Positions 2,850 to 21,354 are shown, counted from the first letter of the stretch. The stretch is 32,875 nucleotides of DNA from Candidatus Woesearchaeota archaeon (GCA_016205905.1 JACQSP010000031.1:1-32875); one strand, 5' to 3'. The notes: generated from the letters alone by a model not told the origin. A program made the numbers and translations.

Positions 2850-5375
2850 TCATCTATTCAAATACTGCTGCTTATAGACTTCCACAGCACCTTCTAATCC
2901 AAGCAAGATTGCCCTGTCAACTGCCATTGAAATAGTCATTGTATCTGCAAATAAAGGATTTTCTGAACGTGATGGATCTCTTGGATTGTTGACAACTGCC
3001 ATTATACCGCCAACTCTTACATCATATCCCTTAAGTTTTGCAAGATGAGCAACAGCAGACATCAGTGCAATCTCCATTTCTGAGCCATAAACAGTATCAT
3101 GCATAACCTTGCCTCTGGTAATCAGTCTTTTCTTTCTGACTCCCTCTGGCTCTATTTGAAATGCCTGATAAGCCTCACTAAATAATGTTGTTTTTGAGAA
3201 AACAGGGCCAACATGAAATTTGTCTTCGTCAAATCCAAGCCTTTCGACAGCGGTTAGTATACAATTTCTTATTTCAGAATCACACAAATAAGATTTAACT
3301 ATTTCTGCCTCTGATAATTTATAATCTAAACTGTCTGAAAAATATTTAATCAAATCTGCAGTATGTGCTGCAAATTTGTTATATGCATTATCAAGAGGAG
3401 AATTATGGAATATGCTTCTTATCCTGCTTCTTACGCTGGTTGCAGCGCCAGTACTATTTAATTCTAAAACACAGTCAACAAGATTTTCAAGTATCAGCAG
3501 AGCACCAAGCCTTAGATGGTTGGCAGCGGTATCATGCGGAGTTTCAATTAAATCACTCACACTTCCAAACGGACAGTAGGTTTCAGTTGCAACAATTAAA
3601 TCACCGCCATAAACTTTTTTATTGTGCGAACCGCATGTTCCTATTCTAATTAAGTTCAATGGCATTCCGGGATTGGCTTTCGCACTTCTTTCAATTTGAG
3701 CAAACAAATTTTTGAATGCATTTTTGGCATTTATGTAAGTATCAACTATTTCCATAGTTGTAATTTCTGTGCTTCCAAAACCCATTCCTGATGTTGCAAC
3801 TGCAATAGGGATTTTGTACTCTTTTCCGTCAATGATTCTGATAAGATAACCTTTGCCTATCGGCAGGCCTCTTCCTGTCTTTACGTGCCTGGTCATTATA
3901 TCCAGCATCCTGTACAGCCTGTTAGTTCTGTCAGGCTCTCCACTTATAAGAATAGTTGTTGGCTCATTGTTCTCAATAAATTCAGTTGTCATACCAAGAT
4001 GATGCGTTGGTTTAGAGACAATCTTTAATGGTTCAGTCTGTGCTGTAGTAAAAACTGTTGCATTAGATGTTGTTCCAGTGGAAGTTGCTGCAGAAGGAGT
4101 TATTGCATCTGAAGCAGGTTCATGTTTTTTACCAGTTATTTCAACCACGCTTGAAACACCACCTGTTTTTGCATTTATTTCTCTTATTCTTCTTTCGCAC
4201 AATTCTTCTAACGCTTTTGATGTGTTCGGACATCCTGCAAACAAGAAATCTTTTTGTTTTATCAAGTCTTGAATTATACTGTCTTCAATCTCCTTCCATG
4301 CTGAATGAATCTCACGCCATTCTTGGACTGTTGAAACATTGCCTAAAGGATAGCGCTCATTAATTGCATCTTGGAGAGCAAACCCACCTTGTGCAAGTTT
4401 TTTTAGCTGCTCCCATGATTCAGCAACCTCTTTTAAATGGCCTCTGAATGCGCTTCTTCTTTTTCCGCCGTCATAAATTACACAAGATTCAAGAACATAC
4501 TCTGGCCTCGTCAATAATTCTCGCACAAATTCAGGTGTTGTTAGCGCATCTTCATGATAAGTAAGGAAATCAGTATCTGGAATTTTTATTTTCACAGGCG
4601 ATGTTTTTTTGGCTAAACCGAATCTTCCTTCCATATATAAAACATTTGCCCTGAGATTAGCAGCAAACACATCATTAAATTCTTCTTTTCCAAATAGTTC
4701 AGCAATAATTTCCTCTGTTTTGTTGACACCGATACTAAAAAAATTAAGTGAGTTTAATGTGTAACCCCTTTGCTTCATTTCTGAAAGAAAATTAATTAAA
4801 CCATGCTGCAATGAAGTTCCTGTTGCTACAATATCCCCGAAAAACAAGTCAACACTTCTCGGTTCTTTTTCTGCTTCAAATAATTTTTTGTATCCGTCAA
4901 GCACAATGGCCCAATCATCGCTTTCAGTATTTTGTGCATTTGGAATTCGTTTTCTTTGGCTGGATAAATAATGTTCAATTGTCCTTATTCCTATCTCACC
5001 TAAACCGCTTGTTGGATCAAAATTAAGGCCGCCTCTTAGAATAAACAACACGTCAGCAAAGTTCCTGCCAGCAACCAATGTTTGTTCTATAATCTCTCTT
5101 AATCCGCTTCTTGAGATTGCAGAGCCAATGCCCTGCTGAAGCATTCCTTCAAACTCAGGAGAAACAATATCTGATTGTGTTGTAATTTGCTGTGTCTGCG
5201 ATGTGGAAACAATGTATCTTTTTATCCTCGGATCGAGAGTATCATTTTTCTCAGTTCTTGGTTTCTCTTGTTTGGTATTTTTAACATCTTCAACATCTTT
5301 TTCGTCAGAAACAAGCTCGTACAAAGATACGCCCGGTGTTCTGCTTATTACTCTTAGCACATCTCTTTTTCCCAT
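2850..5375 (-). CDS. Fusion protein: uracil-PRTase-like phosphoribosyltransferase domain plus PNP/UDP-family nucleoside phosphorylase domain
   Basis: AAGGTGGA SD upstream of ATG. The N-terminal half has UPRTase-like VLFILRGGL and a PRPP loop VDLFFGDIVATGTSL. The C-terminal half has PNP_UDP_1-like ILISGEPDR, ATSGMGFGS, LIRIGTCGS and GSEMEIALMSAV. A serine/threonine-rich linker (PSAATSTGTTSNAT) lies between them. Confidence 0.7.
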   Translation of the reverse strand: MGKRDVLRVISRTPGVSLYELVSDEKDVEDVKNTKQEKPRTEKNDTLDPRIKRYIVSTSQTQQITTQSDIVSPEFEGMLQQGIGSAISRSGLREIIEQTLVAGRNFADVLFILRGGLNFDPTSGLGEIGIRTIEHYLSSQRKRIPNAQNTESDDWAIVLDGYKKLFEAEKEPRSVDLFFGDIVATGTSLQHGLINFLSEMKQRGYTLNSLNFFSIGVNKTEEIIAELFGKEEFNDVFAANLRANVLYMEGRFGLAKKTSPVKIKIPDTDFLTYHEDALTTPEFVRELLTRPEYVLESCVIYDGGKRRSAFRGHLKEVAESWEQLKKLAQGGFALQDAINERYPLGNVSTVQEWREIHSAWKEIEDSIIQDLIKQKDFLFAGCPNTSKALEELCERRIREINAKTGGVSSVVEITGKKHEPASDAITPSAATSTGTTSNATVFTTAQTEPLKIVSKPTHHLGMTTEFIENNEPTTILISGEPDRTNRLYRMLDIMTRHVKTGRGLPIGKGYLIRIIDGKEYKIPIAVATSGMGFGSTEITTMEIVDTYINAKNAFKNLFAQIERSAKANPGMPLNLIRIGTCGSHNKKVYGGDLIVATETYCPFGSVSDLIETPHDTAANHLRLGALLILENLVDCVLELNSTGAATSVRSRIRSIFHNSPLDNAYNKFAAHTADLIKYFSDSLDYKLSEAEIVKSYLCDSEIRNCILTAVERLGFDEDKFHVGPVFSKTTLFSEAYQAFQIEPEGVRKKRLITRGKVMHDTVYGSEMEIALMSAVAHLAKLKGYDVRVGGIMAVVNNPRDPSRSENPLFADTMTISMAVDRAILLGLEGAVEVYKQQYLNR

Positions 5376-6582: not shown

Positions 6583-7851
6583 ATGACAGATAAAGAACTG
6601 AAAAAAGAATTCAAGGCAGTTGCAAGCAAGGCACCTGACAAATATTACGCTACCTCTGTTCTTAAACAGGAAGGTTTTGCCAGGAAACAGTGCAAATGCG
6701 GCACATTTTTCTGGACAGTTAACAATGAACAAAAAACATGCGGTGATCCAAGTTGCTCAGGCGGATTTAAATTCATTGGAGAAGGTCTTGTTAAAGAAAA
6801 GTTAGATTACATAGAAATATGGAATAAATTTTCTCAGCATTTTAAAAAATTAGGCTACACACCTATCCAAAGATATCCTGTAACAGCCAGATGGAGAAAT
6901 GATACTGATTTTGTCCAAGCTTCAATTTATGATTTCCAGCCTTATGTTGTTTCAGGCGAGGTTAAACCGCCTGCTAATCCATTAGTTGTCCCGCAATTCT
7001 GTTTAAGGTTTAATGATATTGATAATGTAGGCGTTACAGGAGCGCATTTTACAGGGTTTGTAATGATTGGCCAGCATGCATTTATGCCGCCTGATAAATT
7101 TGACCAGAAGAAATATTTCAGCGATATTCATTCTTGGCTTACTAAAGGCCTAAAACTTCCAAATAAAGAAATAACATACCATGAGGACGCATGGGCTGGC
7201 GGCGGTAATTTTGGGCCGTGTATGGAATTTTTCAGTCGTGGCTTAGAATTAGGAAACCAAGTTTATATGCAGTACGAAGTTCTGCCAAACAGCCAGAAAA
7301 AAGAGCTTAATCTAAAAGTCCTTGACATGGGTATGGGGCATGAAAGAAATGCATGGTTTGCATCAGCAACTTCGACAAGTTATGACGCTGTTTTTCCAAC
7401 TGTTTGTAAAAAACTTTACAGTGCAACTGGTGTTAAAGTAGACAATGAACTTATGAAAAAATTCCTGCCGTATGCGTCATATCTAAACGTTGATGAGGTG
7501 GAAGATATAAATAAGGCATGGCAAAACGTCGCAAAAAAAGTTGGCGTAACTCCAAAAGAGATTAAAGAGTTTGTTCTGCCTCTTTCAGGAATTTATTCTA
7601 TTGGCGACCACACAAGAAGCCTGCTTGTCGCATTAAACGACGGCGCACTCCCAAGCAATGTTGGTGGAGGATATAATTTAAGAGTAATTTTAAGACGAGC
7701 TCTTGGATTTATTGACAAGTATGGTTGGGATATTGATTTAATAAAAGTTGCAGAATGGCACGCTGAATATCTGAAAAAATTATTTCCAGAGCTAAATGAA
7801 AATCTTAACGAAGTCAGCGAGATATTAAAGGTAGAACAAATAAAATATTAA
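6583..7851 (+). CDS. alaS: Alanine--tRNA ligase, N-terminal (catalytic) segment ending at an in-frame TAA
   Basis: Archaeal-type AlaRS N-terminus (GFARKQCKCGTFFWT...CGDPSC) and class II core (FCLRFNDIDNVG, FTGFVMIGQHAF, MGMGHERNAW, PSNVGGGYNLRVILRRA). Confidence 0.9.
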   Translation: MTDKELKKEFKAVASKAPDKYYATSVLKQEGFARKQCKCGTFFWTVNNEQKTCGDPSCSGGFKFIGEGLVKEKLDYIEIWNKFSQHFKKLGYTPIQRYPVTARWRNDTDFVQASIYDFQPYVVSGEVKPPANPLVVPQFCLRFNDIDNVGVTGAHFTGFVMIGQHAFMPPDKFDQKKYFSDIHSWLTKGLKLPNKEITYHEDAWAGGGNFGPCMEFFSRGLELGNQVYMQYEVLPNSQKKELNLKVLDMGMGHERNAWFASATSTSYDAVFPTVCKKLYSATGVKVDNELMKKFLPYASYLNVDEVEDINKAWQNVAKKVGVTPKEIKEFVLPLSGIYSIGDHTRSLLVALNDGALPSNVGGGYNLRVILRRALGFIDKYGWDIDLIKVAEWHAEYLKKLFPELNENLNEVSEILKVEQIKY

Positions 7852-8037: not shown

Positions 8038-9096
8038 ATGCATGAGAAGAAAGAGCAGGTTCATGCAACACAGAAAGAGGAAAGGTTAAACTTAAACGGG
8101 ATTCCTGAAACAAAATGCCTTTATTTTGACGACTGGAAATTAACTAAATTTAAGGGAAAAGTTCTGAAAGTAATTGACAACAAAGTTATTCTTGACCAGA
8201 CTGCATTTTATCCGACATCTGGCGGCCAATTGCATGATACAGGAACATTGCAAAATGAACAAGTGATAGATATATTTAAGCAGGGCAATGTAATTGTGCA
8301 TGTTTTAGAAACCAAACATGAATTTCCAGTTGGAGAATCATTGGCAGGGGAGATTGACTTAAACAGAAGACAGCAACTAGCACAGCATCATACTGCAACA
8401 CATATTATTAATGCTGCTGCCCGAAGAATTCTTGGAAAACATATTAATCAGGCTGGCGCAAAGAAAACACCTGAAAAAGCGCATATTGACATCACACATT
8501 ATAATTCTTTAAACAATGAAGAAATAAAAAAAATCGAAGACGAAGCAAACAAAATAGTTAATGAAGATATTGAAGTAAGAAAAAAGTTTTATTCTAGAGA
8601 TGAAGCAGAAAAGAAGTTTGGAATGAGCATTTATCAGGGTGGTGCTGTGCCTGGAAACAGATTAAGGATAGTAGAGATTCCAGAAGTGGATGTAGAAGCA
8701 TGCGGAGGCACACATTTAAACTCAACCAAAGAAACAGGAGAAATAAAAATCCTAAAAGCTTCAAAAATACAGGATGGCATTGTAAGGATAGAATTTACTG
8801 CAGGAAAAGCAGCAAAGAAAGAAGAGCATTGTCAGGAAGCATTATTAAGCGAACTTTGCAGGGAATTATATTGTAAAGATATTAAATTAATTCCTTCAAG
8901 AGCAGAAGAGTTGTTTGGCTTGTGGAAAGACGTTGTAAAAAAGAAAAAACAGGTTGATAAAAAACTATTGACATCAACAAAAGAAGTCAATGGTTCATGC
9001 GATGACCTCCTCGCAAAAACCTGCGAAGTTCTCAGAACACAGCCAGAGCATTTAACCAAAACAATAAGAAGGTTTAAGAAAGAGATTGGGATGTGA
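8038..9096 (+). CDS. alaS: Alanine--tRNA ligase, C-terminal segment (editing domain); AlaRS homology already begins at 7852 in the same frame
   Basis: Same reading frame as 6583..7851. Editing-domain motifs HHTATHIINAAARR and CGGTHL. Codons 7852-8037 (…NLLELYDTQGISPELI…VPDNFYAKIAEM) are AlaRS-like but contain no ATG/GTG/TTG. Confidence 0.85.
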   Translation: MHEKKEQVHATQKEERLNLNGIPETKCLYFDDWKLTKFKGKVLKVIDNKVILDQTAFYPTSGGQLHDTGTLQNEQVIDIFKQGNVIVHVLETKHEFPVGESLAGEIDLNRRQQLAQHHTATHIINAAARRILGKHINQAGAKKTPEKAHIDITHYNSLNNEEIKKIEDEANKIVNEDIEVRKKFYSRDEAEKKFGMSIYQGGAVPGNRLRIVEIPEVDVEACGGTHLNSTKETGEIKILKASKIQDGIVRIEFTAGKAAKKEEHCQEALLSELCRELYCKDIKLIPSRAEELFGLWKDVVKKKKQVDKKLLTSTKEVNGSCDDLLAKTCEVLRTQPEHLTKTIRRFKKEIGM

Positions 9097-10728: not shown

Positions 10729-11163
10729 TCAACTAATTCCTTTACTCCATTTTTCAGAGATGCATTCTTTTTCATAAAAGTTTCTTTCTAAATCTTCATC
10801 TATCTCTAACAGTTCTACATAATGACTCCATGTTAATTGGTCAGACAGTGTCTGACTTTTCTGATATTTCAAATAAAATATTCTCATATATATGACATTG
10901 CTTCTGCTGAATCCCTTTCCATATCTATTCTTTAAATCAAATGCAATTCTTTCAAATAGCTTACTTCCATATCCTACATTTTCACCTACTCTTTGTTCAT
11001 ATTCAACAATCTGCTTGCCAATCTCCCAGTATGTGTTCACAAGAATTGTATTGACAGCATAAATTGCTTTTGTTCTGCCTAATTCTAATATTCTACCTAT
11101 TTTAAGGATTAAATGTTGATAATTTCTTTTGTCTGTTTTTTTGTGTAGTTTAATTAGTTTCAT
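10729..11163 (-). CDS. DUF1016 N-terminal-domain protein (truncated YhcG-like gene; nuclease domain missing)
   Basis: AIYAVNTILVNTYWEIGKQIVEYEQ...YGSKLFERIAFDLKNRYGKGFSRSNVIYMRIFYLKY...LTWSHYVELLEI matches the DUF1016 N-terminal domain. The ORF stops right after EKWS, where full-length homologs continue (VRELERQI... and the PD-(D/E)XK domain). Confidence 0.7.
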   Translation of the reverse strand: MKLIKLHKKTDKRNYQHLILKIGRILELGRTKAIYAVNTILVNTYWEIGKQIVEYEQRVGENVGYGSKLFERIAFDLKNRYGKGFSRSNVIYMRIFYLKYQKSQTLSDQLTWSHYVELLEIDEDLERNFYEKECISEKWSKGIS

Positions 11164-15572: not shown

Positions 15573-15721
15573 AATGTTTCACACTTTTTCTTATGAAAGA
15601 TTATAGTAATTAACATTTCTTGGTTTTTTTGTAAAGTAGTTTACAAAAGGTTAATATTCTTGGTATGCTTAATAAGATTATAATGTTCAATTATCTTAAT
15701 TAAAATTAGAAAGGTGAAAAC

Positions 15722-16051
15722 ATGAGTGGAACAGAACTAGAAGATGGTTATTTTGGAGTTAGTGAAAGACGAGAAGGTAGACCATTAGTAGGAGAATTTA
15801 ATTATGACAGCGCTCCAGAACGTGGTGGAGAAGTTCCAACACAAGATTTAGTAGAGGTAGGTATTCTTCTTCATATCCAAAGAAGCGTTACACGAGAATA
15901 CACTCACAGAATGTATATAGCCGTAGATTTGTTAAATCAAGGAAAAATTGCACTTTCACAATTAAATTTGAGAACAGGTGAAGTAGATATGTTAGAGCAA
16001 AGAGTAACTGATAATTATTATTTGAATAATGTTGTCAGAAGCAGAGAATAG
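15722..16051 (+). CDS. Hypothetical protein (109 aa), paralog of the N-terminal module of 19444..20523
   Basis: AAGGTGA SD 6 nt upstream of ATG. Shares EDGYFG, ERGGEVPTQDL, VTREYxHRM and VDLLN blocks with the 359-aa protein. Confidence 0.6.
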   Translation: MSGTELEDGYFGVSERREGRPLVGEFNYDSAPERGGEVPTQDLVEVGILLHIQRSVTREYTHRMYIAVDLLNQGKIALSQLNLRTGEVDMLEQRVTDNYYLNNVVRSRE

Positions 16052-16112
16052 GTAATATTGATTCATAATAATTTTTAGAGTGTATTACTTAGAAAAGGCT
16101 GAATGTTGTAAT

Positions 16113-16134
16113 CTTCAAATTGCAGATTGTTGGC
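16113..16134. repeat. Left copy of an imperfect inverted repeat bracketing the 16.1-20.6 kb block
   Basis: CTTCAAATTGCAGATTGTTGGC, followed by AGGTTTTTT. Partner at 20529-20555. Confidence 0.45.
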
Positions 16135-16286
16135 AGGTTTTTTATTTGTGTTCTTTATTATATTAAGACGTTTGTTGAAGATTCTCTGTGATGATTTGAG
16201 ATTTGGTGGAACACAACTAAAATGATAATACTCTTCATAACTAAAACTATAAGAGGTTTGTGGTCTGCTATACTATAAAATCGTGT

Positions 16287-16763
16287 TTATTCATAAGAGC
16301 GACCGACTACAGCCCATAGGTTTACTCGTGGTTGAACACACTTTTCTTGTAGTTGAACCCACTCTTCAAAGTCACCTGTTGTTAATTCTGATTTTTTTAT
16401 TTTATATGTTCTTAACCCATTAAAAGCACAATCTGGACCAGCTATTGTCCATCTTATCCTGCCTTTTACTCTAACAACAAAATTAATATCATCTTCTATT
16501 ATATCTTCAATTTCCAAATATCCAGCTGATTTTACAATCTCTTTATAATTCAACCCCTTCTCGTACCAGAAAAAATATGCAAAATCCATACCTGGCATTA
16601 ATCTATCAAGACTTAATGCTGTTCTTGTACTTCTTACTATTGCACATATATCTTTTCTGTGTGATGGAAACACAGGCTCATATGTTGTACCATAACCATA
16701 CCTTGGAGAAGGATTTAATCTTTCAACCAAATATCTTATTTCATCGACTTTCATTTCATTCAT
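16287..16763 (-). CDS. Hypothetical protein (158 aa), last gene of the DapF-like operon
   Basis: ATG at 16763-16761 preceded by GGAGG (10-nt spacer); the ORF-track start at 16772 is GTG. No family recognised. Confidence 0.6.
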   Translation of the reverse strand: MNEMKVDEIRYLVERLNPSPRYGYGTTYEPVFPSHRKDICAIVRSTRTALSLDRLMPGMDFAYFFWYEKGLNYKEIVKSAGYLEIEDIIEDDINFVVRVKGRIRWTIAGPDCAFNGLRTYKIKKSELTTGDFEEWVQLQEKCVQPRVNLWAVVGRSYE

Positions 16764-16807
16764 TTTAATCACGCCTCCAATAAGCTATATATGCGTTTGC
16801 TATATTC

Positions 16808-16846
16808 GTGGACTTTAACTAAATAAATTCAGATATTAAAGTCCAC
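16808..16846. repeat. Intercistronic hairpin GTGGACTTTAA-N17-TTAAAGTCCAC
   Basis: 11-bp perfect stem. Homologous to hairpin 2702-2740 (GCGGACTTTAA/TTAAAGTCCGC). Its GTCCACCG tail matches the core of the 3'-end repeat family. Confidence 0.55.
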
Positions 16847-16861
16847 CGCAATAATGTTCGA

Positions 16862-17902
16862 TTATTTTGCAATTTTAGTATATATCTCTTTCGCCTTATT
16901 AATAATATCTTCTCTATTTGTCACATCAATATTCATAATTAGCAAATTTAACGACGCTGTTAACTCTGGCCTAGCTGCACTAATCCTTAATTTATACAAA
17001 TGCTGCTCGTCTTGAGTATCAATTTTAGCTTTTGTTATGTTTTCTAAATAAAATGCACTTGCCAAACAATATGCGCTATTTGCAACTCTTATTGCATGCT
17101 GCTGCTCTTCTGAAAATTGTGAAAATGGTTTTGAATATTCAATAGGATTAAAATTTTTATCAGGATTTAATCCGTACATAAAATCAATTATTATAACTTC
17201 TTTTCCATAATGCTGCGACAAGGAAACTTCAAGTGATGGCTGTATTTGCTTAAAATATCGGCCATTTCCATATAAGAATAGATAATCCTCATCATAGCCG
17301 GTAAATAGAATTACATTACGATTATTGCTTATTACTTTGCGATTATTATTTAGATGTTCTTTTGCTGTATAAGTTATATGTTTCATTTTTTCATAATAGA
17401 CTATCAACTCAGCTATTGTACATTTTAATCTGCCTTGTTCACGAATATCAGTTACCATGCCATCTACAATTATCAAATCGCGAGAGGGGAATCTTTTATC
17501 ATCGTCTATTTTTCTAAGCAAATCTAAATCAAGTGTGTTTAAGAAAGACACCCATTCTCTTATTGAGTCATTATATTTTTCTTCATGTCTCGGCTGTTTT
17601 ATAGCTGCCTCATCAATCAGCCATAAATCTGTATGAGCCAAACCAGCAAATCTTTCAAAATCGTTATACATTTCAGGGAGCATACTTTCGAAATTAAGCG
17701 GTTTTGCGTCGATAACAGGTGCAACCATTGAAACCGGATATTTTTCCCTTAACATTGCATAAAGATGAAGTACAGGTGTATGCCTTTTGAAAGTTCTGCT
17801 TGGCCATGGATTAGAATTCTGGATAGTAATTGGAGCTCCATCCATTAAAATAGTTACATTTTCTATAATATTATTTATTGTGTTGCCAGCCATAAGAATC
17901 AT
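16862..17902 (-). CDS. Hypothetical protein (346 aa), translationally coupled to the DapF-like gene
   Basis: The ATG (17902-17900) lies 3 nt after the upstream TGA (17908-17906), with GTGAGG just upstream. No family recognised. Confidence 0.65.
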   Translation of the reverse strand: MILMAGNTINNIIENVTILMDGAPITIQNSNPWPSRTFKRHTPVLHLYAMLREKYPVSMVAPVIDAKPLNFESMLPEMYNDFERFAGLAHTDLWLIDEAAIKQPRHEEKYNDSIREWVSFLNTLDLDLLRKIDDDKRFPSRDLIIVDGMVTDIREQGRLKCTIAELIVYYEKMKHITYTAKEHLNNNRKVISNNRNVILFTGYDEDYLFLYGNGRYFKQIQPSLEVSLSQHYGKEVIIIDFMYGLNPDKNFNPIEYSKPFSQFSEEQQHAIRVANSAYCLASAFYLENITKAKIDTQDEQHLYKLRISAARPELTASLNLLIMNIDVTNREDIINKAKEIYTKIAK

Positions 17903-17905
17903 GCC

Positions 17906-19042
17906 TCACTTTCTCAACAGATTAACTTGATAATTTGCACTGCCTATTTTCTTCGCAGAACCTATCATAGAAATATTGTTCTTTGAGAATTTGAGGTAAA
18001 TGTCTCCACCATCATTAATTACTCTAATTTCATTGTTGTCATGATTATTGTGATTAGGGTTATTGTTATTATGATTATTGTTATCCTGATTAGTGTGGTC
18101 ATGGTTATTATTATCATTGGTTGGATTACAATAGTGATTACAAGAAGAATTTAACATCCACATCAATGTTGCGCACGATGTTGAGCCTGTGCCGCAGCAT
18201 AATGTTGTCGCCCACAAACCGCGCTCTAAAGTTCTGATTCTGATATTTCTGTCGTCGATAATTTGCATTGCATTCAAATTAATGCCAAATGGAAATATAT
18301 CTCTATTTTGGATAAAAGCTAAAAATCCCGTTAAATCAACATTATTTACATCGTCAACAATCAGCACGCCATGCGGCTCACCAGAGTTTAATAAATATAT
18401 CGAACAATTTTTATAAGCGAAGACTGCACAAAAAGTGGTTAGCAGATTAAATACTGCTTTTTGTAAATTAACATATTTTAAAGGATCTTGTGGAAAACCC
18501 ATATCGACCGTTACAGTGTCGCCTATTACTTCTGTTAAAAATATACCGCTGTTTGTTTCGATGTTTATTTTTTGATTTGGAATGTTTGTTTTTTGTTTAG
18601 AAGCTTTTGTTTTGGGTTTTGAAACAGTTATTTTATTATATAAATTGCCTATTTCAGAACTTAGACAAAATTCATGTTCAAGATATTTTGCAATACACCT
18701 TAATCCATTACCGCACATATCTGACTCTGAACCATCTTTTTCAAATATCCGCATTTTTATATCTGCAACATTTGAAGGTTGGAGAAAAAGTAAACCATCT
18801 ATCCTTTTATTCTGTATTTGGCTTGAGTTGCATACTTCTCTGCTTAACTTACTTCTTGTTTCATCATTGGATATATTATGAATTCTTTCGTCTATTATTG
18901 CAAAAACATTGCCGTTTCCTTCAAAGATTTCAAAAGAAACTTGAGGTACAAGCGTATGATAATTATTATTAAGAAAATTAAGATTATCTGTGTTATTATT
19001 TATATCGACGACATTTCCGACAATCATCCATGCATGTTCCAA
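17906..19042 (-). CDS. DapF-fold (diaminopimelate epimerase-like) two-cysteine PLP-independent epimerase/racemase with N/H-rich insertion
   Basis: FEGNGNVFAIIDE (GNDF-like), FEKDGSESDMCGNGLRC and TLCCGTGSTSCA (the two catalytic-Cys motifs), and SGEPHGV. The track start is TTG at 19042; an alternative ATG is at 19027. Confidence 0.7.
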   Translation of the reverse strand: MEHAWMIVGNVVDINNNTDNLNFLNNNYHTLVPQVSFEIFEGNGNVFAIIDERIHNISNDETRSKLSREVCNSSQIQNKRIDGLLFLQPSNVADIKMRIFEKDGSESDMCGNGLRCIAKYLEHEFCLSSEIGNLYNKITVSKPKTKASKQKTNIPNQKINIETNSGIFLTEVIGDTVTVDMGFPQDPLKYVNLQKAVFNLLTTFCAVFAYKNCSIYLLNSGEPHGVLIVDDVNNVDLTGFLAFIQNRDIFPFGINLNAMQIIDDRNIRIRTLERGLWATTLCCGTGSTSCATLMWMLNSSCNHYCNPTNDNNNHDHTNQDNNNHNNNNPNHNNHDNNEIRVINDGGDIYLKFSKNNISMIGSAKKIGSANYQVNLLRK

Positions 19043-19189
19043 TTTCTGCCCTTAAGTTAAGATATGTTCTTGTGTTCATTATTATCACCAGTTCATTATA
19101 TCACCTAAATTTATACATGAAGATATTATATTAGGATAAACTATTTTAGATTAATGTAAACTATACAACAAAAAGATACTTATTTGTTA

Positions 19190-19308
19190 TTGCAGATTAA
19201 ATGTAAAATATTCTATATTATGCCCTATTTAATCTGCAAGATTGTAAATTTATAGGTACAGACATTAATAATTGTAAAAATCGGTAATCGTGCCTATAAA
19301 TTTACAAT
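19190..19308. promoter_or_regulatory. Two adjacent long perfect or near-perfect hairpins in the divergent promoter region
   Basis: TTGCAGATTAAAT/ATTTAATCTGCAA (19190-19202/19227-19239; 13 bp). ATTGTAAATTTATAGGTAC/GTGCCTATAAATTTACAAT (19241-19259/19290-19308; 18 of 19 bp). Confidence 0.5.
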
Positions 19309-19443
19309 AAATAAAATGAAAATTAAAATACTGCTTTCAGAAAAGTTACAAAAAGTATAATTATAAACTTTTTTTTAAAAATGTGTATATTAGTTTACGT
19401 CAAGCTTATCTATGAAAACTGCTATCTTCTCATTGTGATAAAT

Positions 19444-20523
19444 ATGACAGCACTTCAAGCACAAGAACAAAGAAAGGAAACAAAAAGACAGGAACCAGAA
19501 GACGGATATTTTGGAAGAGATAGTGATGGCACTTATTGTTATGAATCTGCTCATGAGCGTGGTGGAGAAGTTCCTACACAAGACTTAATAGAGATGAATG
19601 AGATAATTCATATAACACGCAATGTCACCAGAGAATATTCTCATAGAATGGGTTGTATTGTTGATTTATTAAATAATAAAAAGATAGAATTGGAACAAGT
19701 AGATCAAGAAAGCGGTTTGATAGAATTTGTGAGTGGACAATTGCTTTATGATAGGCTTTGTGATGGAGATTCATTAGATAAAATTTTTTCTTGTTTGGAT
19801 ATTACGAAAATACCACATGCAGATGAAATTATGGAAGCCACGATGATAATGGAAGAGAAATGCTATGATGAATTGATTAAACACAAAAATCTTCACGGCT
19901 CATACTTAACAGCGGATTTCCCATTATATGTTTTTGAAAATGGGGAAGCCATACTTTATCTTGCAAAAAGAGAGAATAATCCTATGTTTTATAGTGCGGA
20001 TAATTTAAGAGATGCATTATATCAATTATTGAGAACACATAATTATAAACCAAAAAAAGAAGATGTTGAAAGAGTGATTAATACAGACAGCACATTAAAA
20101 ATTCCACTGTCAAAGCTTAATTTAGAAAATCGTGGTGGGTTATTTAGGTGGAGTGATGATGAAATTGTGTTTTGCTATTTCAAAATAGATGTAGCACACA
20201 TTGAGCAACTTAACCCAACTCAAAGAGCACTTGCAGAAAGGGTTTATGGAAAAGGAGAGAATTTTGACAGAATAACTCATAATCTTAAGGAAATGATTGA
20301 CAAAAAAAATGCAGAACGGAGAATAACAGACCAAATTGGAACAAAACAAATTAGTCTTGCAGTTCTAACACCAGAATATGTAGAACATAGATGGATTAAC
20401 TATGGAAAAAGAGCAATAAGCCGCCCTTCTATTTTGGGCAATTATAGAGATGAATCTTCATTTGATGTTAGAAAATGGACTCTTGATGATCATTATCTAC
20501 TATTACATACAATTATAAAATAA
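19444..20523 (+). CDS. Hypothetical protein (359 aa) with an N-terminal module paralogous to 15722..16051
   Basis: MTALQAQEQRKETKRQEPEDGYFG...HERGGEVPTQDLIE...VTREYSHRM...VDLLN. The C-terminal ~270 aa are unrecognised. The track start at 19381 adds 21 hydrophobic AT-rich codons, judged unlikely. Confidence 0.65.
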   Translation: MTALQAQEQRKETKRQEPEDGYFGRDSDGTYCYESAHERGGEVPTQDLIEMNEIIHITRNVTREYSHRMGCIVDLLNNKKIELEQVDQESGLIEFVSGQLLYDRLCDGDSLDKIFSCLDITKIPHADEIMEATMIMEEKCYDELIKHKNLHGSYLTADFPLYVFENGEAILYLAKRENNPMFYSADNLRDALYQLLRTHNYKPKKEDVERVINTDSTLKIPLSKLNLENRGGLFRWSDDEIVFCYFKIDVAHIEQLNPTQRALAERVYGKGENFDRITHNLKEMIDKKNAERRITDQIGTKQISLAVLTPEYVEHRWINYGKRAISRPSILGNYRDESSFDVRKWTLDDHYLLLHTIIK

Positions 20524-20528
20524 AAAAA

Positions 20529-20555
20529 GCCAACAATAAATACTGCAATCTGAAG
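20529..20555. repeat. Right copy of the imperfect inverted repeat
   Basis: The reverse complement reads CTTCAGATTGCAGTATTTATTGTTGGC. 21 of 22 aligned positions are identical to 16113-16134, with one 5-nt indel. Confidence 0.45.
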
Positions 20556-20657
20556 GCCACAGCATTCGCTTTTTCAAATAAAAAAATCTGCCTTTTTTAA
20601 GTAATATTGCCTTTAATCAACTAACAATATATTAACATAATGTTAACTATTTAACAT

Positions 20658-20670
20658 AAAATATATAAAC
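20658..20670 (+). promoter_or_regulatory. TATA-box candidate for the ACT-domain gene
   Basis: AAATATATAAAC about 30 nt upstream of the ATG at 20695. Confidence 0.35.
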
Positions 20671-20694
20671 TGTTAACAATTAGATCATGTTAAT

Positions 20695-21354
20695 ATGGTA
20701 ACAATCGCAAGAACAGTTGAAAAAATCGTTGAAAGAAAGCCATTTCTTCAGGAAGCATTAGTCAGAGGAGTAATTAATGTAGCTGCATTAGCAGAGGAGA
20801 TTTTGCCAGAAGTAGAAACAGAAATGAAAGAAAAAGTTAAATTTGGAGCAGTGATGATGGCGATAAGGCGGTTGAGTGAGAAATTAAACAAATCATTCAT
20901 AAAAACTGCAAAGTTTGACATAAGTTCAGATATTAGTGTTAAATCTGATTTATATGAGATTACATTAAGAAAACTTCCAAGTATACAGGCAAAAATTAGC
21001 AAATTATATGATAAAATAAATTCAGAGAATGATTTTCTTACTGTAACCCAAGGCATTAATGAAATAACCTTGATAACAAACAGAAGGAACAAGACAAAAA
21101 TAAGGTTATTATTTGATTCAAAGGAAATTAAGTCAGAAGTAGAGGATATTGCCAGCGTCACAATAAATATTCCTGTAGAAGCAATACAGACTATTGGCCT
21201 GTTTTATATAGCCACAAGAGCATTAAACTGGGAGAATATAAATATAATAGAAATTGTTTCAACATTTACAGAGCTGACATTTATTATAAAAGAAGAAGAT
21301 GCGCCAAGAGCATTTGCAACATTAAAACAGTTAATAAGAGAACAAAGCAAGTGA
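20695..21354 (+). CDS. ACT-domain protein (ACT_7-like, archaeal family)
   Basis: N-terminus IVERKPFLQEALVRGVINVAALAEEILPEVE and C-terminus GLFYIATRALNWENINIIEIVSTFTELTFIIKEEDAPRAF are typical of small archaeal ACT-domain proteins. Confidence 0.55.
   Translation: MVTIARTVEKIVERKPFLQEALVRGVINVAALAEEILPEVETEMKEKVKFGAVMMAIRRLSEKLNKSFIKTAKFDISSDISVKSDLYEITLRKLPSIQAKISKLYDKINSENDFLTVTQGINEITLITNRRNKTKIRLLFDSKEIKSEVEDIASVTINIPVEAIQTIGLFYIATRALNWENINIIEIVSTFTELTFIIKEEDAPRAFATLKQLIREQSK

Follow-up and report, generated by a model that had tools for sequence, protein, structure and literature searches.

A tightly coupled dapF-orfB gene pair next to an ACT-domain gene in Woesearchaeota-type archaea

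The DNA analyzed here, called the window, was a whole contig of 32,875 nt (32.9 kb, ~33% GC) from a Candidatus Woesearchaeota archaeon, and the subject of the analysis was a minus-strand operon led by a diaminopimelate epimerase-type gene, dapF, together with the genes around it. A first-pass annotation, made from the sequence alone, had described five open reading frames (ORFs) as one block, and all of them were found where it had placed them: P1 (15722-16051, plus strand, 109 aa); the minus-strand genes dapF (17906-19042 from a TTG, or 17906-19027 from an ATG), orfB (16862-17902, 346 aa) and orfC (16287-16763, the last gene of the operon, 158 aa from an ATG or 161 aa from an upstream GTG); and P5 (19444-20523, plus strand, 359 aa), which was divergent from the operon as claimed. 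Next to P5 lay a DUF7523/ACT-domain gene (20695-21354, plus strand). The window was compared with contigs and loci of relatives, labelled L001-L019. By these comparisons dapF and orfB are a real, tightly coupled and conserved pair.

The junction TGAggcATG between dapF and orfB was present, and the translational coupling proposed for it was borne out in so far as the start/stop coupling was kept in every lineage examined. The dapF gene adjoined or overlapped orfB in the window, L001, L009, L010/L018, L011, L013 and L019. At the distant loci (L010/L018, L011, L013 and L019), which stand for four or five more distant archaeal lineages, the dapF end and the orfB start were at most a few bases apart or overlapped, and the pair sat among ribosomal-protein, RNA-polymerase-subunit and elongation-factor genes of other archaeal contigs. 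Where the contig permitted it, in L010, L011 and L013, dapF was divergent from a gene for a ~220-aa ACT homolog, 53-56% identical to the ACT protein of the window, and the remaining neighbours all differed. Because this trio persisted while every other neighbour changed, the conserved unit was taken to be the ACT gene facing dapF-orfB. The limits of the block were thus redrawn: the core included the DUF7523/ACT gene as its third member, which the first-pass annotation had left outside. The idea that the epimerase, the 346-aa, the 158-aa and the P5-like genes would co-occur across genomes did not hold, since orfC and P5 were clade-specific and absent from the distant loci. The ACT-dapF intergenic regions of L010 (3465-3598), L011 (9081-9177) and L013 (7676-7737) shared the motif GTTAATATACTAT(A/T)TAAA, which may be a promoter or operator. 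In the window, the DNA directly upstream of the ACT gene (20621-20694) was 95% identical to that of the sister species introduced below, and was rich in GTTAAC-type palindromes. A literature search on DapF in DPANN archaea or Woesearchaeota, on DUF7523 and on DapF with synthetase-like proteins returned no relevant paper.

The product of dapF evidently belongs to the diaminopimelate epimerase family. It scored 161.2 bits against NCBIfam TIGR00652 and so passed the equivalog cutoff of 114.65, matched Pfam PF01678 (DAP_epimerase) in two stretches (3.9e-32; 111 bits against a cutoff of 34.7), and its nearest PDB sequences were all DapF (1e-26). Like known DapF proteins (TIGR00652, PF01678), it had two DAP_epimerase domains with one cysteine motif each, and the two motifs reported earlier, DMCGNGLRC and CCGTGSTS, were recovered as SDMCGNGLRC and LCCGTGSTS; alignment with relatives showed that the GNGN, GEPH and ERG segments were also kept. 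Both cysteine motifs were conserved in four of the five aligned lineages, the exception being L011. The protein differed from known DapF in that no lysine gene was seen nearby, in its operon with a synthetase-like orphan, in its large low-complexity inserts, and in the serine found in L011. The ATG at 19027 was a likelier start than the TTG at 19042, because the gene called in L001 used the same start and the N-termini aligned. Identity to the DapF of the sister species was 61.5%, a value explained in part by lineage-specific low-complexity inserts. At 18032-18121 and 18579-18674 the window carried two distinct inserts, an Asn/His-rich one made up of tandem repeats of 15 nt and a Lys-rich one; the Lys-rich insert was missing in the sister species, which had a different, Asn/Cys-rich insert near the DapF N-terminus.

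The ACT protein (219 aa) matched the aspartokinase regulatory ACT pair (TIGR00656 positions 260-404, 1.1e-5) and had no kinase domain, and one source named it aspartokinase. Precomputed DUF7523/ACT matches in relatives were graded weak or faint, and a PDB sequence search with the ACT profile found no solved relative. Its nearest known counterparts were the regulatory (beta) subunit of aspartokinase and stand-alone ACT regulators, to which it was likened by its matches to the ACT pair, ACT_7 and ACT_9, and from aspartokinase it was set apart by the lack of a kinase domain.

Rates of evolution were estimated per gene between the window and L001. The dN/dS ratio was 0.04 for ACT and for GlyRS, 0.07 for RFC-L and 0.12 for ValRS; it rose to 0.24 for orfB, 0.30 for DapF and 0.56 for orfC, and for P5 it was 0.65 as a whole, 0.47 in the N-domain and 0.69 in the remainder. 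These ratios indicated that ACT, orfB and DapF are under purifying selection. The locus might nevertheless be a relic or minimal version of lysine synthesis or of diaminopimelate (DAP) salvage, with DAP possibly scavenged from bacterial walls and orfB an unrelated neighbour. A DapF above the equivalog cutoff would fit such a locus, as would the match of the ACT protein to the aspartokinase regulatory domain and the name aspartokinase given to it. However, purifying selection acted on dapF, orfB and ACT alike, the start/stop coupling of dapF with orfB was kept in every lineage amid shuffled surroundings, and no further pathway gene appeared: neither the window nor the examined flanks of its relatives showed lysC, asd, dapA, dapB, dapL or lysA, whole genomes being outside the scope of the search. 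We therefore regard a lysine or salvage relic as unlikely. The earlier view that the locus does not serve lysine biosynthesis agreed with these flanks.

The orfB family was tiny: 9 clusters were counted in a set of 5.8e9 proteins, and a set of 1.84e9 gave 7 representatives below 1e-30; its distant members were ~34% identical and ~300 aa long. Scans of orfB against NCBIfam, PHROGs and PADLOC gave no match, nor did a PDB sequence search with the orfB profile. A metagenome scan with query P0015 came back empty. The families of orfB, P5 and orfC had no Pfam model and were annotated as hypothetical proteins. An AlphaFold2 (AF2) model of orfB, built from an 8-sequence alignment, was confident, with a predicted local distance difference test score (pLDDT) of 85.2 and a predicted template modeling score (pTM) of 0.87. 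When it was compared with the PDB by Foldseek, essentially all significant matches were to TyrRS, CysRS, MshC (8hfn), MetRS, GluRS, ArgRS and TrpRS, at E ~1e-4 and probability 0.9-1.0, but with template modeling (TM) scores of 0.31-0.40 and root-mean-square deviations (RMSD) above 10 Å. Independently of the PDB search, comparison with BFVD returned ArgRS, CysRS, MetRS and GluRS of giant viruses. The predicted order of elements was strand, helix, strand, helix, an insertion with a beta-hairpin, two strand-helix units and a four-helix C-terminal domain, which fits class I synthetases as far as a model can tell. The first-pass annotation had found neither P1 and P5 nor the two operon orphans placeable in any family; this was upheld for P1, P5 and orfC and, as regards Pfam, for orfB, to which a predicted fold like that of class I aminoacyl-tRNA synthetases can now be given. 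A cyclodipeptide synthase was also considered for orfB and rejected, as no solved structure of such an enzyme was among the PDB fold matches.

Invariant polar residues of orfB (D21, D65, D97/E98 and T201-G-Y-D-E205) fell at the C-terminal ends of predicted parallel strands, N246 lay three residues past the last strand (235-243), and H41 preceded the first long helix; these positions were assigned with the secondary-structure string and not by superposition. They bear on the possibility that orfB is a non-catalytic, synthetase-like scaffold, that is, a pseudoenzyme that would bind tRNA or DapF and regulate or localise the epimerase. Loss of both signature motifs, HIGH and KMSKS, and the retention of a synthetase-like helical C-terminal domain in the model would suit a scaffold. 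The many invariant polar residues clustered at Rossmann-type ligand sites are instead typical of active enzymes, which makes a pseudoenzyme quite improbable in our judgement.

The other genes of the block behaved differently from this core. P5 had two homolog clusters among 5.8e9 proteins. Its N-domain of ~80 aa was conserved, its C-terminal part evolved fast, and in this clade the gene sat between dapF and the ACT gene. A longer P5 ORF, from 19381, had no upstream ATG in L009. Identity to the sister-species P5 was 48%, against 85-98% for housekeeping proteins. No match to P5 was found in Pfam, NCBIfam, PHROGs, PADLOC or a PDB profile search, and its AF2 model was poor (pLDDT 44.7) and gave fold matches at E > 1 only, which were disregarded. 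The orfC product was 75% identical in the sister species and had no match in Pfam, NCBIfam, PHROGs, PADLOC or the PDB; the GGAGG Shine-Dalgarno sequence assigned to its gene was present, 9 nt before the ATG. By tblastn, orfC was found in L001-type loci only (the short L009 contig ended before the position), and neither P5 nor orfC was found in the distant loci. The loci compared thus showed that both genes, orfC following orfB and P5 standing between the ACT gene and dapF, are clade-specific, fast-evolving additions.

The paralogy of P1 and P5, asserted from the sequence at first reading, was recovered with 52% identity over 87 aa (P5 residues 17-96, E 3e-26). P1 was a stand-alone copy of the conserved P5 N-domain and kept its invariant motif EDGYFG...ERGGEVPTQD...VTREY.HRM..VDLLN. 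Between P1 and three P5 N-domains, dS was 1.1-1.3 and dN/dS ~0.31-0.39, and among the P5 orthologs themselves dS was 0.35-0.75. On these values P1 was judged an old paralog kept by selection, not a fresh fragment, and the idea that it had recently been copied from the adjacent P5 and truncated was rejected. P1 lay within a window-specific segment (~15579-16275) that was missing from the sister species, so that one of two histories would apply: P1 was lost by the sister species, or it was acquired by the window. Scans of P1 gave no assignment in Pfam, NCBIfam, PHROGs or PADLOC; a weak RAMA match (E 0.028) was dropped, being common to no P5 homolog.

The first-pass annotation had presented the block as a discrete accessory or conflict module, bracketed by P1, P5 and an inverted repeat. 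The repeat core was confirmed as described: 16113-16134 against the reverse complement of 20529-20555, 21 of 22 positions identical with one 5-nt indel, of the form CTTCARATTGCAG-N0-5-ATTGTTGGC. The similarity extended to 16083-16142, the left arm 3' of the P1 stop with a plus-strand T-run at its end, and 20529-20606, the right arm 3' of the P5 stop with a minus-strand T-run (~52 against 78 nt, ~80% identical with indels); the right arm had an internal insertion or duplication of ~26 nt. Its local score of 26 under strict scoring was reached by none of 1000 shuffles (14.3 +/- 2.1) and by 1 of 977 random window pairs (p about 0.001), and on both counts the repeat was real and beyond chance. RNA folding of the arms gave no stable structure on either strand (z -0.9 and +0.15), and a structured-RNA reading was accordingly not supported. 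At ~80% identity the arms would be younger than the P1/P5 split or else constrained, because neutral DNA of that age keeps no similarity. We infer a small 3'-flank element specific to the lineage, whether terminator- or small-RNA-like or a dispersed repeat, and no transposon end.

Comparison with the sister species, itself of the Woesearchaeota and represented by L001-L009 (the contigs of the P5 homologs), L015 and L016, told against a discrete module. Its proteins were 90% (tRNA-editing protein), 85% (bPH-domain protein), 91% (RFC-L), 89% (ValRS), 98% (ACT) and 95% (GlyRS) identical to those of the window, and the gene order rfcL / orfC orfB dapF / P5 / ACT glyS was the same. The sister thus held the segment in full and in the same place, lacking P1 and the repeat arms only, and no presence/absence difference of the block as a whole was seen between the two. 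The gap between rfcL and orfC was 35 nt there, which leaves P1 and the left arm missing; the DNA 3' of the sister P5 was unrelated to that of the window and carried different hairpins, 20270-20620 had no DNA match in L001, and no bracketing repeat was present in L001. Since the sister species had neither P1 nor the repeat, the bracketing was confined to one genome.

An accessory or conflict module gained by horizontal transfer, with the repeat and P1/P5 as its ends and a D-amino-acid-containing molecule for use in conflict made or modified by it, would draw on the repeat being beyond chance, on the fast evolution of P5 and orfC (dN/dS 0.65 and 0.56), on the tiny families of P1, P5 and orfC, and on several lineage-specific insertions that a blastn comparison with L001 placed in the window at the block. 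It was largely refuted by synteny, the same site being occupied in the sister without P1 or repeat, an outcome that the first-pass annotation had itself listed among those that would refute it, and dapF-orfB-ACT was kept in distant lineages among ribosomal and informational genes. Signs of mobility, defence or a viral origin were lacking as well: no ORF within 14.3-23 kb had a recombinase or transposase domain; the GC content of the block (0.28-0.34) was like that of the rest of the window; P1, orfC, orfB, P5 and DapF had no PADLOC match at E <= 0.1; PHROGs scans of the block proteins gave no match; and scans of viral contigs with P5/P1 and orfC, and with the repeat core, found nothing. Moreover, the dS of P5 (0.51) was similar to that of its neighbours, which argues that its divergence arose by rapid evolution in place and was not imported. 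An acquired module is therefore considered very unlikely. By contrast, these comparisons indicated a chromosomal cluster, inherited vertically within a limited group of Woesearchaeota-type (DPANN) archaea, and no island of mobile or defence genes.

Recombination at the arms might also invert the 4.4-kb segment or swap sequence between P1 and P5, so producing phase or sequence variation of P5. Their position directly past the stops of two paralogous genes and the hypervariability of P5 are what such a cassette would lead one to expect. Yet no recombinase gene was nearby, the arms were ~80% identical with indels, and inversion would fuse or switch no coding sequence; recent exchange between P1 and P5 was discounted because the two have diverged so far (dS above 1). 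An inversion cassette is hardly credible on this evidence.

Several further elements lay between the genes of the vertically inherited cluster. The intercistronic hairpin reported between orfB and orfC was confirmed at 16813-16851 (minus strand), with an 11-bp stem formed by GTGGACTTTAA/TTAAAGTCCAC and z -3.8. The spacer that contains it (~86 nt) was absent in the sister species, where the orfB stop of L001 lay 5 nt from the orfC ATG. A candidate upstream ORF of 27 codons (18996-19079, minus strand) overlapped the dapF start codon; it had a GGTGAT Shine-Dalgarno sequence and was conserved in L001 and L009, with an in-frame 18-nt deletion in L009, and the intergenic DNA around it was ~87% identical to that of L001. 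The divergent dapF/P5 control region (19028-19443) was strongly conserved in three lineages except at one place. There the window carried a specific insertion of ~118 nt (19190-19307), absent from L001 and L009, with a near-perfect hairpin of 19-bp stem (19241-19308, z -5.8).

Elsewhere in the window, archaeal informational genes were found for the RFC large subunit, archaeal-type GlyRS, ValRS and a two-piece AlaRS, and scans of the window detected no tRNA genes or Rfam families. The AlaRS gene was split or disrupted into two ORFs, 6583-7851 and 8038-9096, with a gap of 186 nt; the first matched Pfam tRNA-synt_2c positions 1-358, the second positions 470-551 and tRNA_SAD. A DUF1016/YhcG-type gene (10729-11163) consisted of the N-terminal domain alone (144 aa) in the window and was full-length in the sister species (341 aa, with YhcG_C), the shared part being 55% identical. 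An 841-aa ORF (2850-5375) had PNP_UDP_1 (phosphorylase superfamily) as its sole Pfam match, in the C-terminal third, and a large N-terminal region without match. In the segment 23081-29591 two ORFs were exceptionally long, at 1259 and 834 aa; they carried DUF4215 and CARDB domains and probably encode surface proteins. Synteny between the window and the sister species stopped just past glyS, and L001 carried unrelated genes where the window had the DUF4215/CARDB ORFs.

For the conserved trio, a biochemical role can be sketched from known systems. Class I synthetase paralogs have been repurposed as amino-acid ligases, as in MshC, which is paralogous to CysRS, and in GluQRS/YadB, a shortened paralog of GluRS. 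Going by its predicted model, orfB would have a Rossmann-type domain with an insertion and a helical C-terminal domain as these do, and its length (~300-346 aa in the family) resembles that of GluQRS. However, MshC and GluQRS keep HIGH and KMSKS, whereas orfB has neither, shows no detectable sequence similarity to them and aligns at TM 0.31-0.40. In the modification of elongation factor P by EpmA (PoxA) and EpmB (YjeK), whose genes are linked, an amino-acid isomerase provides an uncommon isomer, which a synthetase paralog then joins to a macromolecule; the isomerase, EpmB, is a radical S-adenosylmethionine aminomutase, and EpmA is a paralog of the class II enzyme LysRS. The dapF-orfB pair may by analogy follow the same logic of isomerase plus synthetase paralog with genetic linkage. 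It differs in pairing the class I-like orfB with a two-cysteine epimerase that is independent of pyridoxal phosphate.

On this basis we favour, at slightly better than even chances for the package as a whole, a vertically inherited cluster that combines an epimerase, a synthetase-derived amino-acid-activating enzyme and ACT control; most of the uncertainty lies in its biochemical part. DapF would invert the stereocentre of diaminopimelate or a close analogue. The orfB product, a putative synthetase-derived Rossmann/HUP enzyme in which HIGH and KMSKS were lost, would bind the DapF-type amino acid and activate it or ligate it to an acceptor. The ACT protein might sense the amino acid and control the divergent promoter region. 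A more specific proposal, an undescribed two-step system in which the DapF-type epimerase supplies a particular stereoisomer of diaminopimelate or of another amino acid related to it, a strongly derived class I synthetase paralog, forming a new family that lacks HIGH and KMSKS, attaches it and ACT is the sensor, is possible but improbable; its acceptor might be a tRNA, a protein or a cell-envelope component in host-dependent archaea.

A number of observations weigh against the favoured combination of epimerase, activating enzyme and ACT control. Most concern orfB, whose resemblance to synthetases lies in the predicted structure only, at the low TM scores given above. None of 13 orfB family members had a Pfam match, and hhalign of the family against E. 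coli CysRS and TyrRS gave a probability below 1%, that is, no signal. No HIGH motif was found: a single conserved histidine, H41, stood in [RA]H[TL]P before helix 42-54, and there was no H-x-G-H. KMSKS was likewise absent; past strand 235-243 came a nearly invariant N246, a usual P247 and a variable K/G. Because these motifs were absent and no sequence method linked orfB to the synthetases, it is called synthetase-like in fold and not a member of the superfamily. In L011 (9178-9999), DapF read DMSGNG, with serine in place of the first catalytic cysteine and the second cysteine motif intact, which could reflect altered chemistry there or a sequencing variant. The ACT protein stayed below the Pfam thresholds (DUF7523, in the N-terminal part, 25.6 bits against 27; ACT_9 and ACT_7, 16-17 against 27), and its regulatory role is a guess. 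Finally, the inverted repeat was statistically non-random yet unexplained.

Genomes of DPANN archaea are very small, so genes that stay linked and constrained in them usually matter to the lifestyle of the cell. The repeat-bracketed "island" was an accident of one genome, and this negative result matters in itself. Ligases derived from synthetase paralogs are already known; one that is class I-like, has no signature motifs and occurs in obligate linkage with DapF would be new. If the proposed activity is true, archaea would be using diaminopimelate-type amino acids in a new way, apparently outside the lysine pathway, and synthetase-derived enzymes would gain a new branch. The dapF-orfB pair is thus a moderately interesting lead for the enzymology of DPANN archaea.

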